Source of the DNA: Terriglobia bacterium
GTDB taxonomy: Bacteria; Acidobacteriota; Terriglobia; Terriglobales; Acidobacteriaceae
Assembly: GCA_963790645.1 (NCBI GenBank)
Contig: CAWBPS010000006.1
Span: 11,405 to 75,404, forward strand
DNA length: 64,000 bases
Direction: 5' to 3'
The number at the start of each line of letters is the position of its first letter. Within the stretch, counting starts at the first letter, position 1. Below, one piece after another: positions 19,202-25,310 of this stretch. The notes under the pieces were generated by a model that searched no databases, had not been told where the DNA came from, and was given only the letters and a program-made list of their open reading frames with translations. Position numbers and translations under genes: made by a program.

Positions 19202-21007
19202 CTAGGTGACGCTTACCTCGGTGTAGGTTCCGAAAACTTCGCGGAGGGCTTCGCAGATTTCGCCAACCGTCGCGTAGGCCCGCACCGCGTCCACAATGTA
19301 GGGCATGGTATTGGCGGATGAGATGTCGCCGTTTGCGGACGTTCGCGGTTCCTGGACAGCGGCTTTTTTCAAGGCGTCCAGACGCCGCTGGACTTCTTCA
19401 TTCGAACGGCGTGCGCGCAAGGCCTTGAGCTTTTCCGATTGATGCCGGGCCACGCTTTCATCGATGTACAGCGTATGCGGCGGTTCTTCCTCGACCACAA
19501 ACTCGTTCGCTCCCACTATGATCTTTTCTTTGGCTTCGACGGCGCGCTGGTATTGGTAGGACGCTTCAGCAACTTCTTTCTGCGGATAACCGCGCTCGAT
19601 GGCTTTGACCATGCCGCCCATGGCGTCCAGCTTGCCAAAATAGTCGAAGGCCCCCTTCTCCATTTGCAGGGTCAGGGTTTCGAGGAAATAAGACCCGCCC
19701 AGGGGATCGACTGTCTGGGTCACTCCCGATTCGTAAGCGATGATCTGCTGGGTGCGCAGCGCGATGCGCGCCGCTTCTTCCGTCGGCAGGGCGAAAGCCT
19801 CATCGTAGGAATCCGTGTGCAGCGACTGGGTGCCGCCCAGCACCGCCGCCATGGCCTGCAAGGCCGCCCGCGCGATGTTGTTCATAGGCTGCTGCGCCGT
19901 GAGTGAGACACCTGCCGTCTGGGTGTGGAAGCGAAGCAGGCGGCTGCGCTCGTTCTTTGCCTGGAAACGGTCCTTCATCACCTGGTACCAGATCTTGCGG
20001 GCTGCCCGGTATTTGGCAATCTCTTCAAAAAAATCGTTGTGGGCGTTGAAGAAGAAACTGAGCCGCGGCCCGAAGTCATCCACGTCGAGACCGCGCCGCT
20101 GCGCCCATTCCACGTACTCGACGCCGTCGTAAAGCGTGAAAGCCAACTCCTGCAGGGCGGTCGAGCCGGCCTCGCGAATGTGGTATCCGCTGATCGAAAT
20201 TGTGTTGAACTTTGGCGTAAACCTGGAACCAAACTCGAAGGTGTCCACCACCAGGCGCATCGAAGGCGCGGGGGGATAGATATATTCCTTCTGCGCGATG
20301 TACTCCTTCAGGATGTCGTTCTGCAGCGTGCCCGAAATTTTCTTCCAGTCGGCGCCCTGCTTTTCCGCGACCACCAGGTACATCGCCCATAGCACCGACG
20401 CGGGTGAGTTGATAGTCATCGAGACCGTGGTTTTTTCCAGGGGGATGCCGCCGAACAGGATCTCCATGTCCTCGAGCGAATCGATGGCCACGCCGCACTT
20501 GCCGACCTCGCCTTCGCTGGCGGGATGATCGGAGTCATACCCCATCAGCGTGGGAAGATCGAAGGCCACCGACAATCCGCCGCCGCCGCTTCCCAGCAGA
20601 TATTTGTAGCGCTGGTTGGTTTCTTCCGGCGAGGCGAAGCCGGAGAATTGCCGCATCGTGAACAGCTTGCCCCGATATCCGCTGGCGTGAATGCCGCGCG
20701 TGAACGGCGGCTGCCCGGGATGGCCCAGATATTTTTCTGCGCTCCAGTCAGCGGGCAGATCAGCGGGAGTATAAAGCCGCCGCACACGTACGCCGGAAAT
20801 TGTGGTGAAGCGGGCGTGGCCGTGCTCATCGCAATTTACGCCGGTGGACGCGCCGATCGGCTTCTCGGGCGCTTTTTCCAGAGTCGGCAGGAGCGTTTTC
20901 TCCGCCCACTCCTTTTCGCCCGGGGAGGGATGCCGGCCGTCAAACACATCGGCAATCGGGTTTTCCGCGATTTGCGGCTTGGAAGGCTTCTTATCAGGCA
21001 TGTGCAC
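19202..21007 (-). CDS. B12-dependent acyl-CoA mutase large (catalytic) subunit, isobutyryl-CoA-mutase-like signature
   Basis: Strong similarity by eye to the MutB catalytic barrel ([38 protein letters not shown]). TMRQF and [12 protein letters not shown] occupy the Tyr89 and Arg207 positions of MutB. Confidence 0.85.
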
Positions 21008-21434
21008 TCCGCCTATCTCCGATCATAGAAGAGGCCAGTACGGCGGGCAAGGCACCAACTGAAGTCATCAACTGAAATCACGTGGGGACAGCCGCCCTCG
21101 GCTGTCCGGTCGAGTGAAACTCGACGAGTCTCTGCCGGAGACCAGCAGCGGAGCTTCTCTCCGCCGGACAGCCGAAGTGTCATCCTGAGCGGAGCAACTG
21201 TTTCGCGAAGCGAAGCAGCTACGGAGTCGAAGGACCCCTATATTCACGCGGATGCTGGCACTTCAAGAGAGAGCGCAGGACGTTCCTTCTTCCTGAGGTA
21301 GGGGTCCTTCGACTTCGTGAGCCATTCGCAAGCAAATGAGCTCACTCCGCTTGATTGGATAACGACGTTGGCTCGTCGCGGAGTAGAGTGGTATGCGATG
21401 AACACGACCAAGGCTCGTGAGAGGAGCCAACGTC

Positions 21435-22478
21435 ATGCTGATTATAGGCTGCGATTTTCATCCTGGCTTTCAGCAGGTCGCGATCTTTGACAACTTAACG
21501 GGTGAGATTCAGGAAAAGCGGTTACAGCACCGCGCCGAGGCGGAGCAGTTTTACCGCGGGCTGGCGGGCCAGGAAGTGCGGGTGGGGATGGAGGCCTGCG
21601 GGCACTATCCGTGGTTCGAGCGGCTGCTGGCGGAGCTGGGCTTCGAGTTGTGGTTCGGCGATGCGGCGAAGGTGCGAGCCTCGGTGGTGCGCAAGCAGAA
21701 GACGGACCGGCGGGATGCCGAACACTTGCTGGATCTATTGCGCGAGAATCGATTTCCGCAGATCTGGGTGCCGAGTCTGGAAGTGCGGGACGTGCGGCAG
21801 TTGCTGGTGCATCGCCACAAGCAAGTGCAGGCGCGGACGCGCACCAAGAACCAGCTGCAGGCCATGGCGCTGAGCCAGGGCGTGCAGAAAAAATACAAGC
21901 TGTGGACGAAGGCAGGGCGCGAGGAGATGGAGCAGTTGCCCTTGCTGCCGTATGCGGCCCAGCGGCGAAAGCAGTTGCTGCAATCGCTCGACGGACTGGA
22001 AGCGGAAATCAGCGAACTGGACCGGCGAGTGGCGGACGAAGCGCGGCAGCGGCCGGAGGCGGTGCGGCTGATGACGCATCCCGGAGTCGGTCCGGTAACG
22101 GCCTTGGCCCTGGTGCTGACCTTGGGACCGGCCAACCGATTCGAATCGGCCAAGCAAGTGGGCAGCTACTTCGGGCTGATTCCCAGTGAAGATTCCAGCG
22201 GCGGAAAACAGCGGCTGGGCAGGATCAGCAAACAGGGCAGTTCGTTTCTGCGCTTTTTGCTGGTGGAAGCGGGACAGACCGCGGCGCGGTTGGATCCGCA
22301 GCTGAAACGCTTCTATCGTCGCCTGGCGGCGCGCAAGAATCGCAGCGTCGCCAAGGTGGCCGTGGCCAGAAAACTGGCCACGCGGTTGTACCTGATGTTG
22401 CGCGAAGACTGGACGTACACGCAACTCTGTCAGGCCGTTATGCAGGTGAGCCTGAGTCATTCTGTGGCCGGCCACTAA
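21435..22478 (+). CDS. IS110-family DEDD transposase
   Basis: The N-terminal RuvC-like domain (MLIIGCDFH...VGMEACG) and C-terminal Transposase_20 motif (HPGVGPVTALALV...SAKQVGSYFGLIPSEDSSGGKQRLGRISKQGSSFLR) are present. ATG at 21435 follows GAGGAG. Confidence 0.9.
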   Translation: MLIIGCDFHPGFQQVAIFDNLTGEIQEKRLQHRAEAEQFYRGLAGQEVRVGMEACGHYPWFERLLAELGFELWFGDAAKVRASVVRKQKTDRRDAEHLLDLLRENRFPQIWVPSLEVRDVRQLLVHRHKQVQARTRTKNQLQAMALSQGVQKKYKLWTKAGREEMEQLPLLPYAAQRRKQLLQSLDGLEAEISELDRRVADEARQRPEAVRLMTHPGVGPVTALALVLTLGPANRFESAKQVGSYFGLIPSEDSSGGKQRLGRISKQGSSFLRFLLVEAGQTAARLDPQLKRFYRRLAARKNRSVAKVAVARKLATRLYLMLREDWTYTQLCQAVMQVSLSHSVAGH

Positions 22479-22724
22479 GAGCCGAGCGCTTGAGTGGGCA
22501 GCCTGCCTCCCTGAAAAGGTCAGGGAGATCGAACTGAGCAATCATGGGAGCTAGTCCCGAAGAGATGGATAGTGGAACCTGAGGTTCCACTGCGAGATTG
22601 AAATCGAATGACGACCTTGGTCTGGGAGTCAAATACCTTCTACCAGAGCGAAATGGCGCCACTCACCGCGTCCACGCCGTAGTGTCGCTACAGAACTCTT
22701 GACAGGGCACACCGTCGTTAGAGA
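22479..22724 (+). ncRNA. Candidate bridge/seek RNA region in the IS right end
   Basis: The region is non-coding and contains hairpins TCCCTGA-AAAGG-TCAGGGA (22508-22526) and AGTGGAACC-TGA-GGTTCCACT (22571-22591). The position matches IS1111-type elements. No guide pairing was demonstrated. Confidence 0.3.
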
Positions 22725-22776
22725 CAGGATGACAGGGGGCTGTCCCCATGTGATTCATTCCAGGCACGTGCACCTG

Positions 22777-22891
22777 TGTGGGGCGGACACTCTTGTCCGC
22801 CGCCTTTGACTTTGTTTTTGAGCATATCGGACCGATGGCGAGACTGGTAAGGCAACTTCAAAAGCGTCGGACAAGAGTGTCCGACCCACAC
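22777..22891. repeat. REP/BIME-like inverted pair (GTGGG head plus GGACACTCTTGTCC hairpin)
   Basis: The element reads GTGTGGGGCGGACACTCTTGTCCGCC ... GTCGGACAAGAGTGTCCGACCCACAC. Confidence 0.8.
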
Positions 22892-22895
22892 CGGA

Positions 22896-25310
22896 CTATG
22901 GTCCCACTACTGGCGGCGTGGGCGGACCCTCGTCCTTCTTTTCGGCATCGGGCTTGGGGACGCCAGGAGGCAGCACGTTTGCCTTGGTGAGCCCGCCACC
23001 ATCGTCTCCTAAAGCTCGAGTCTGCACCGTCATTCCGGACGCCTTGCGCAGATCTTTCAGAATGTCCTGGCGGTCGTGGCCGGCGTATTCGCGGGCAAAG
23101 CGGGTAAGTGCTTCGGTCAGAATATCGTGATGATGCAGCGTCTCCAGGCCCGGCTCGCGCGTGATGTTCAGCCACAAGCGATGCACCAGATGCACGTCTT
23201 CCGTCTTCAGCGACGGCGTGTGTGGACCAATGTGGAAGGTGTCAACCTTGAGATTGGGATAGATGACCTGGAAAATGAATTGCCGCTTAGGCTCGGGCAT
23301 GGCCTCCCAGGCATGGCCCAGGTAGAAGGCCTGTTCCTGGGCACTCATCTTGCTGGAGAGTCCCGAAACCACAGCGGAGCTTTCCAGGTTGTTGGCGGTC
23401 TGCACGATCGCCGACCAGGGATCGCGCGCGGGCACCACCAGCAGTGAGACATGTTTGCCGAAATTTTCCGCGACCGACACCGCCCGGGTAAACAACTGCT
23501 GCTCGTAGTCGCTGAATATCTGCTCCGTTGAAAGATCATAGGCCGCGGTGCCGAACTGGCTCACCCGGGCCGACATGACCACGATGTCCTGCTCCTTCGT
23601 GTCGATACGCTCCAGCACCCACTTGAGATGGTTCAGCGTGTTGTAATCGCGCACCGTCACCATCACATTCCCGGCCCGGATGCCCAGTCCGGAGCGCTCC
23701 ACCGTATCGCTTTGCAGCAACTGGAAGTGCTCCTTCATGTGCTGCTCGGCCAGGGCGTGCTTGCTCCGGTTAACCCGCTCGGAGATGGTAAAAATCAGGA
23801 AAAACGCGCCCGCGAAACCGAGACCGGCAACCGTGGCGATCGACTTGGTGAACAGATTGAGGATGGCGGTGCAGAACAGCACCAGAAAGACGGCGAACAG
23901 TCCCACCGGCAACTCGTGGCCGGCGATGGTGATGTTGGGCGGCACTTTCCAGCCGCGCTCGCCTTTGTACTTGATGCGCAGCACCAGCATGGCGAGACTG
24001 TTGAAGGTGAAGCTCCAGATCACGCCAAAGGCGTAGGCCTCGCCCAGCAGATACACGTTGCCGCGGCTCACCAGAATAGTGAAGATCTGCAGAATCACGA
24101 CCAGGTTGACGATCCGGTAAGTGGTCCCGAATCGCGGATGCGGCTGCCGGAACCAGTCCGTGAGAACGCCGTCTTCTGAAATACGGTTAAGAACGCCGTT
24201 GGAACCGATGATCGCGGTATTGACCGCGCCCGAAAGGATCAGGAAGCCCACCACCACCACAAAGGCCCGGAAAGCCAGACGCAGCAGCAACGGGCCGTAC
24301 TGATACATGGCGAGGCCGGCAATAAGATTGTCTTTGTAAACCGGGACCCGGACCGAGTCCGGAATAATCATGACGAACAGCAGCGCCGTGAGCCCGGTAA
24401 AGACGAAACTGTAAACCGCGATAATGATGGCGGCGCGCTTCAGGTTCTTCAGCTTGGGATGGGCCAGCTCGCGGTTGACCTGGGCCAGCGATTCCTCGCC
24501 GCTCATGGCCAGCACGGAATGGCCGAAGGCAATCAGGATGCCGAGAATGGCGAATTTGGAGGCCAGGCCGTGCGCCAGGTCGGTGTGCTTCAAAAAGCCC
24601 AGCGCCTCTTCGCTGAACTTCAGGCTGTCGGCAGTGGGCAGCGGCACGGTCTGGTAGCCCTGCTTCATCAGGGTAAGGGCCGACCAGCCCAGTAGGATGA
24701 CCACCATCACCGTGGTGATCTGCATTACCCGCAGGGCCTTCTCGCTGGATTCCTGAATCCCCTTGGTGTTCTGCCACCAGAAGTACGTGGTCACGGCCAG
24801 AGCAAATACTACCGAGGTCCAGTTGACGTCCAGGTGTGGCGTCCCGTGAAACAGGTTGTGCAGGGCCCGCGGGATCCAGCCGTGGGCCTCGGCGGCGGCG
24901 AAAGTGTCATTGATCAGTCCGGCGATGTACTGTCCCGCCGAGACCCCCGAGATCGGGCCGGTCAGGATGTAATCGAACATGAGAGCGGAAACGCTGACCT
25001 TGGCCAGGGTCCCGCCCAGCGCCTCCTTGACCACGCGGTAAACCCCGCCGCGGACGAACATGGAACAACTCTCGACGTAAACCGCCCGGACGGCAAAAGA
25101 GAACAACATCACCGCCACGATGAACCAGGGCGCCGACTTCCCGATGGCCTGCTCGGCAATGCCGGCAGCATAGAAGGCGGACGAACCCAGGTCATTCAGC
25201 ACTATGGCGGCCGCCCGCCAATAGGAGATGAACGTCAGCATCACCGAGGTCGCGACTACAATGCGAACGCGATCAGCGGTTGAACCTGCGGGTTGTAAAG
25301 GAGTTGCCAT
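22896..25310 (-). CDS. APC-family amino acid permease with C-terminal cytoplasmic (USP-like) domain
   Basis: 804 aa. About 12 TM helices are followed by a soluble domain (DIVVMSARVSQF...LLVVPARDPW). Confidence 0.8.
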   Translation of the reverse strand: MATPLQPAGSTADRVRIVVATSVMLTFISYWRAAAIVLNDLGSSAFYAAGIAEQAIGKSAPWFIVAVMLFSFAVRAVYVESCSMFVRGGVYRVVKEALGGTLAKVSVSALMFDYILTGPISGVSAGQYIAGLINDTFAAAEAHGWIPRALHNLFHGTPHLDVNWTSVVFALAVTTYFWWQNTKGIQESSEKALRVMQITTVMVVILLGWSALTLMKQGYQTVPLPTADSLKFSEEALGFLKHTDLAHGLASKFAILGILIAFGHSVLAMSGEESLAQVNRELAHPKLKNLKRAAIIIAVYSFVFTGLTALLFVMIIPDSVRVPVYKDNLIAGLAMYQYGPLLLRLAFRAFVVVVGFLILSGAVNTAIIGSNGVLNRISEDGVLTDWFRQPHPRFGTTYRIVNLVVILQIFTILVSRGNVYLLGEAYAFGVIWSFTFNSLAMLVLRIKYKGERGWKVPPNITIAGHELPVGLFAVFLVLFCTAILNLFTKSIATVAGLGFAGAFFLIFTISERVNRSKHALAEQHMKEHFQLLQSDTVERSGLGIRAGNVMVTVRDYNTLNHLKWVLERIDTKEQDIVVMSARVSQFGTAAYDLSTEQIFSDYEQQLFTRAVSVAENFGKHVSLLVVPARDPWSAIVQTANNLESSAVVSGLSSKMSAQEQAFYLGHAWEAMPEPKRQFIFQVIYPNLKVDTFHIGPHTPSLKTEDVHLVHRLWLNITREPGLETLHHHDILTEALTRFAREYAGHDRQDILKDLRKASGMTVQTRALGDDGGGLTKANVLPPGVPKPDAEKKDEGPPTPPVVGP

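Follow-up and report, generated by a model that had tools for sequence, protein, structure and literature searches.

The window analyzed here is a 64,000-nucleotide stretch of contig CAWBPS010000006.1 from a Terriglobia bacterium (GCA_963790645.1), and features are on its + strand unless noted otherwise. It contains an insertion sequence of 1373 bp (21352-22724), the boundaries of which were set by comparison of copies and by intact target sites. Its sole gene encodes a DEDD transposase of 347 aa (21435-22478), with AGGAG before the ATG and the stop codon TAA at 22476-22478. The product matches PF01548 (DEDD_Tnp_IS110, RuvC-like DEDD; E 1.4e-15) and PF02371 (Transposase_20; E 3.8e-26). GLIPSEDSSG in the translation corresponds to the C-terminal GL-P----S/TG motif of the IS1111 branch, which has been given as a mark of that group (PMC11187229). 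The non-coding sequence amounts to 83 nt 5' of the gene versus 246 nt 3' of it. An earlier reading of this DNA, made from the letters alone (the sequence-only reading), had described this 246-nt tail as non-coding, and it does run from the TAA to the element end at 22724 without a gene.

The left end (21352-21370) begins with an 8-nt extension, TGATTGGA, and continues as the subterminal inverted repeat TAACGACGTTG. The right end (22710-22724) consists of the inverted repeat CACCGTCGTTA followed by the 4-nt extension GAGA. The two 11-bp repeats (21360-21370 and 22710-22720) match at 10 of 11 positions. The termini, TGATTGGAT... and ...GTTAGAGA, were checked on 10 full genome copies. Inverted repeats within the 7-17 bp range, short extensions, and oriented, site-specific insertion without duplication are the marks of the IS1111 group. 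By these sequence features, the element at 21352-22724 is an IS1111-type insertion sequence of the IS110 family.

The left end also folds as a long hairpin (21352-21445, z -4.3). It is formed by GACGUUGGCUC, which lies beside the inverted repeat, and GAGCCAACGUC, and their pairing covers the AGGAG ribosome-binding site immediately 5' of the ATG. The pairing is kept in relatives with altered sequence, such as the G000b group, where UCGGCUCC pairs with GGAGCCGA. This hairpin may serve as a translational brake on read-through transcripts.

When the whole element was used as a DNA query against the genome, 10 full copies and a truncated one were recovered, all 98-100% identical, and no isolated right-end matches (orphan RNA gene copies) were seen. 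The host site of the 10 full copies is a REP-like repeat of about 65 nt. It is entered in a single orientation, CGCT^CAGGATGAC, without duplication, and the target reads ..CGCT^CAGGATGACAG. The left flank is ..CGCT in nine of the 10 copies, and the right flank is CAGGATGACA or a near variant in all of them. In the window, the left part of the interrupted repeat (21299-21351) ends in ..CTCCGCT, its last 4-5 bases being the left target, and the right part (22725-22734) is CAGGATGACA, the right target. The intact repeats read CGCTCAGGATGAC, so the insertion point is unambiguous. The sequence-only reading had called the target an abundant repeat, which agrees with 167 exact intact sites in the genome and 245 by a looser pattern.

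The remaining full copy (L010; contig C21 of genome G000, ~67151-68527) has an altered left junction, ..GACTGCGCG|AGATTGG rather than ..CGCT|TGATTGG, and the hairpin part of its repeat is missing. This points to a rearrangement next to the copy or to insertion into a partial repeat. Further repeats surround the element in the window. Immediately upstream is another, intact REP-like repeat of the same kind, oppositely oriented (21170-21235, - strand). The sequence past the right target (22735-22752, GGGGGCTGTCCCC...) is the inverted partner of 21084-21100, and the target repeat seems to be nested within a larger palindromic element. A long inverted repeat 3' of the element (22773-22893, - strand) gave a sub-threshold match to an Rfam microRNA precursor (31.6 bits versus a gathering score of 45), and it is almost certainly just a hairpin.

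About 60 related Acidobacteriota elements, among which no fewer than 12 different targets are used, served for comparison. Within the phylum, other genomes yielded relatives with proteins 38-84% identical, and the genome of the element itself has a second family. A scan of public genomes added 80 loci, all from Acidobacteriota assemblies except L074 and L086. All relatives share one end geometry, TGAT..NNA and then the repeat on the left and the repeat and then NNGA on the right, and this was used for automatic end placement in 62 related loci. The same repeat family, in slightly varied form, is the target of many relatives, and others insert at quite different sites. Alignment statistics were taken on 42 non-identical homologous tails aligned with MAFFT. 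The homologues share ancestry, so that shuffle statistics overstate their independence and the approximately 12 distinct target classes are the safer count. The second family in the genome is also of IS1111 type and is found on other contigs (L012-L018), with 59% protein identity and at least six copies. Its guides are distinct (ACAUCGCCAU and GUAAU), as is its target, GTGTAAT^GGCGATGTT, and 14 intact GTGTAATGGCGAT sites remain in the genome.

The sequence-only reading had placed an IS1111-type guide RNA 3' of the transposase gene, beginning at 22479. The guides found here do covary with the targets, and the 5' boundary lies near 22442, inside the transposase frame. A basal stem formed by 22442-22454 and 22495-22506 closes a putative target loop. 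It is 98.5% paired in the 42 homologues, and eight of its 11 pairs are changed on both sides. A distal hairpin with a UGGC/GCCG stem (22465-22484) is 97.6% paired, and one of its column pairs (34/49) is UA in 27 sequences and CG in 12. Both helices were obtained with RNAalifold and by pair counts. Between them is a 10 x 10 nt internal loop, with a guide on each side of the distal hairpin. The 5' half of the loop falls within the last 12 transposase codons, past the conserved part of the protein. The position of the stop codon shifts relative to the RNA among relatives, and in G189a the entire loop lies inside the reading frame.

The right-target guide, GUCAUUCUG (22456-22464), occupies transposase codons 341-343. 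It is complementary to the top strand of the right flank from +1 to +9, CAGGATGAC, over 9 bp with one G-U. For the segment aligned with 22453-22465, contiguous pairing with the right flank of its own target averages 8.7 pairs across the 42 homologues, versus 4.4 with unrelated targets. Relatives show matched changes of guide and flank: CAGCATGAC with GUCAUGCUG, CGTGATGAC with GUCAUCACG, CGGAATGAC with GUCAUUCCG, GGCGATGT with ACAUCGCC, CGGCGCTAC with GUAGCGCCG, and CGAATACATT with AAUGUAUUC.

The left-target guide (22487-22494) begins with CGCU (22487-22490), a copy of left-flank positions -4 to -1, and continues with UGAG. Its predicted partner is the bottom strand of the left target. The UGA is identical to the first three bases of the left end and is invariant among relatives. 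This guide lies about 22 nt 3' of the right guide: the 4-6 bases that precede UGA repeat the left flank of the element that carries them. Over the 6 nt 5' of UGA, 4.3 of 6 positions agree with the own left flank versus 1.4 of 6 with unrelated flanks. About 10 distinct left-flank classes are matched, including CGCT, GTAAT, GAAAT, GCTAT, GCTTAT, CCACT, TCAAAC, AGGC, and AGCC. The closest relative, G189a, has one mismatch (CCGUU versus CCGGT). The top-strand match lies 5' of the bottom-strand match, which is the IS1111 order. This covariation shows that the guides of the predicted target loop track the target.

Two other assignments were considered for the left side of the loop. In the first, CCGAGCG (22482-22488) would pair with top-strand CGCT^CGG and thereby bridge the insertion point. 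It fails in the G000b group, whereas the rule of a left-flank copy followed by UGA fits all groups, and the idea was dropped. In the second, all of UGAGUGG (22491-22497) would mirror TGATTGG at the left end; UGA(G/U)U is the only general part, and 22495-22499 belong to the basal stem.

A second, putative donor loop (22539-22567) repeats the layout of the target loop, with a complementary guide, a hairpin, and a same-sense guide. Its distal hairpin (GGGA/UCCC, 22546-22558), identified by pair counts, is 81.5% paired, and three of its four pairs have changes on both sides. The same-sense candidate guide, AGAGAUG (22561-22567), reads as the final five right-end bases continued by the two that open the left end, and is predicted to base-pair with the circle junction on its bottom strand. 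It tracks the right-end variants: AGAGA, ATAGA, and ATTGA are matched by the RNA block (AUAGAUG and AUUGAUG for the latter two) in 41 of 42 homologues and in G250 as well. One clade (L108, L113-L115, and L120) departs from this rule: the right end is ATAGA and the RNA reads AGAGAUG.

On the other side of the donor loop, CAAUCAU (22539-22545) is a possible but weak donor guide, a sequence match complementary to the circle junction A|TGATTG. AAUCAU does not covary with the left end beyond left-end position 5, and the start of the left end itself hardly varies. AAUCAU also varies in some relatives while the left end is constant. An extension of the pairing into left-end positions 6-8 was ruled out, as there was no covariation. 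CAAUCAU is therefore only plausible as a junction-complementary donor guide, and the covariation establishes the predicted donor loop as a whole only in part. The sequence-only reading had anticipated loop complementarity to both target and donor. This was found for both sides of the target and for AGAGAUG; AAUCAU is the part for which covariation was not seen.

These observations bear on a narrower reading, in which the RNA (~22442-22527) seeks only the target, the transposase reads the ends through the subterminal inverted repeats, and AGAGAUG and AAUCAU are scaffold or protein-binding sequence. Published IS1111 work describes target matches alone, and an RNA of 82 nt is enough for transposition. 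The behavior of AAUCAU and the clade that violates the AGAGA/ATAGA rule are also in keeping with this reading. It does not account for the AGAGAUG block, which tracks three right-end variants in nearly every homologue, or for a donor module that repeats the target-loop arrangement. In addition, donor-matching loops have been reported in IS1111 bridge RNAs (Durrant et al.). A target-only RNA is thus rather unlikely, and an RNA with guides for both target and ends is preferred.

The remaining structure of this two-loop RNA was examined by helix. The sequence-only reading had singled out two hairpins for the guide RNA. The first was given as a 7-bp stem at 22508-22526; it is present, and the stem is one base wider on each side (22507-22527, with 22507-22513 paired to 22521-22527). 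It is 89.6% paired, with compensatory changes among the 42 homologues. The second, a perfect 9-bp hairpin at 22571-22591 (22571-22579 with 22583-22591), stands as described. Eight of its nine pairs are changed on both sides, and it is also recovered by a single-sequence fold. Both stems are real, covary, and belong to the scaffold; the guides lie elsewhere. Two stem positions set the window copy apart from the other nine full copies: 22453 is T instead of C, and 22571 is A instead of G. In both cases a Watson-Crick pair and a wobble pair are exchanged, so pairing is kept.

RNAalifold applied to the whole 42-sequence alignment recovered only the target-loop module and part of the second hairpin. 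Differences in loop length misalign the other stems, and the remaining helices were therefore tested with a structure drawn from the window sequence and counted on the 42-sequence alignment. With this structure, 86.6% of cells are paired, compared to about 42% when the partners are slid. There are 25 pairs changed on both sides versus 5-11 in the slid controls, and none of 500 shuffles attained the observed values. The covariation among homologous copies to which the sequence-only reading had looked is thus present. A single-sequence fold of 22479-22724 is unexceptional (z -1.5 and -1.3 on the two strands). The fold of 22440-22595 has a z of -3.0 and recovers the same helices. The short form of the RNA is probably about 85 nt with a 3' end near 22527, and the long form is probably about 150 nt with a 3' end near 22591.

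The structure also includes conserved G-U stem pairs (42/42 and 40/42), which favor an RNA read from the + strand. This is relevant to the proposal that guiding is done by single-stranded DNA from the element end, in the manner of IS200/IS605-type target recognition. Covariation by itself cannot separate RNA from DNA. However, the other strand would have C-A mismatches in place of these G-U pairs, which in DNA are also weaker. RNase-sensitive RNA of this region co-purifies with homologous IS1111 transposases, and it works in trans. A DNA guide is thus very improbable. Least likely of all is an ordinary 3' untranslated tail with incidental hairpins, in which the protein alone picks the target and the matches are chance or copying artefacts: the weak fold of 22479-22724 and the lack of a relevant family in an Rfam scan of 20900-23000 at permissive thresholds would agree with it, but in about 12 independent target classes the guides vary together with the target, and they do so at fixed places within a covarying structure, and unrelated targets score at background level.

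The best explanation, to which we assign a probability of about 0.88, is that the 3' region of the IS1111-type element (21352-22724) encodes a + strand bridge/seek RNA that starts near 22442 and has guides matching the target and the ends. We infer that this region is transcribed.

Between the predicted long form and the right end there is a conserved 3' module (22592-22698), recognized in alignment A2. It includes a near-invariant sequence, AGAGCGAAAUGGCGC (22645-22659), that is almost unchanged across clades differing in every guide. The helices proposed for this module are just 75-80% paired, and some relatives have a small hairpin there, AGAGCG/CGCUCU. It could tentatively be regarded, although this is doubtful, as a third functional domain outside the published seek/bridge RNA models. 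If true, the module could, for example, control excision versus insertion or RNA processing. The position of the target loop in the last transposase codons would mean that retargeting also rewrites the protein tail.

Next to this module is TTGACA (22699-22704), the -35 hexamer of a predicted promoter that would form only on the circularized element. The sequence-only reading had noted this hexamer 20 nt from the end, facing GATGAT at a spacing of 18 nt. Both features are in the sequence, and their position is held among relatives. CTTGAC is invariant in all 42 aligned sequences. TTGAC[AT] is located 19-20 nt from the end in 69 of 69 loci, in which the joined ends give GATGAT at 17-18 nt, inside the 16-18 nt spacing that marks a circle-junction promoter. 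In the window copy, GA from the right end (22723-22724) would supply the first two bases of the -10, and TGAT from the left end (21352-21355) the last four, at the 18-nt spacing. Circle formation is hypothetical here; given a circle, TTGACA and GATGAT would make up a junction promoter. A scan for one promoter type, the complete sigma-70-like promoter, found none in the linear element, including an internal one for the RNA. In ISEc11, the junction promoter is the sole promoter seen and the short RNA comes from a longer transcript (PMC11187229).

By analogy with ISEc11, ISPa11, and IS621, we infer the following mechanism. The element would excise as a circle, and the circle junction would join TTGACA to GA|TGAT to form the promoter. 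The transposase gene and the RNA could then be transcribed from it as a single unit. The RNA would be trimmed and bound by the DEDD transposase. It would hold the circle junction and the REP-like repeat together, and insertion would split CGCT^CAGG between its T and C and leave no duplication. In the integrated copy, the left junction (CGCT|TGA) and the right junction (AGAGA followed by CAGGATGAC) are matched by these guide segments as well. This fits the published need for target-derived flanks in excision.

The element can be compared to the IS1111 elements for which seekRNAs have been described. The seekRNAs of ISEc11, ISPa11, and ISKpn4 were measured at 82-96 and 154 nt (Siddiquee et al. 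2024, PMC11187229), similar to the predicted lengths of about 85 and 150 nt. As in those elements, there is a DEDD transposase with subterminal inverted repeats, a long 3' non-coding region, no target duplication, and a circle-junction promoter, which is predicted here. The order of the top-strand and bottom-strand matches is also the same, and ISPa11 likewise targets a REP (PMC11187229). In contrast to those elements, the host is an acidobacterium, the REP-like repeat is a different one, and the RNA would start inside the transposase frame. An extra conserved module of about 107 nt also lies between the long form and the -35. Their RNAs were measured, while the RNA here is predicted from sequence comparison.

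Bridge RNAs have been predicted in 93% of IS1111 elements (Durrant et al. 2024, PMC11208160). Like the bridge RNA of IS621 and the IS110 group (PMC11208160; Hiraizumi et al. 2024, PMC11208158), the putative RNA has two stem-closed internal loops. As in IS621, each loop would have one strand that complements the top strand right of the crossover and a second that copies the top strand left of it. The donor-like bases after the left-target guide also resemble the handshake guide of IS621. Unlike IS621, the RNA lies 3' rather than 5' of the recombinase gene and the inverted repeats are long. There is also no common core dinucleotide, in that the target is CT^CA and the circle junction GA^TG, with no bases shared at either junction. 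The solved recombinases of IS621 and ISCro4 are no more than distant relatives of the transposase (E 1e-9). ISPpu9/ISPpu10 of Pseudomonas putida are likewise IS110-family elements in REPs with a small-RNA gene (Ssr9) downstream of the transposase gene (PMC12288879). P. putida also has extra orphan RNA gene copies, of which none were seen in the present genome when it was searched with the whole element.

The guide RNA is of a known family and reveals no new mechanism; it is well supported but ordinary. For the bacterium, the RNA guides would account for the restriction of the element to one REP-like repeat family, of which 10 of about 170-250 potential genome sites are occupied. For the family, RNA-guided IS1111 transposition would be extended to the soil Acidobacteriota. 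The relatives make up a natural reprogramming series, with about a dozen target classes on one scaffold and guide positions that can be read directly. Such a series helps to define how guides are specified in IS1111-type systems, where the rules are not as well understood as in IS621.
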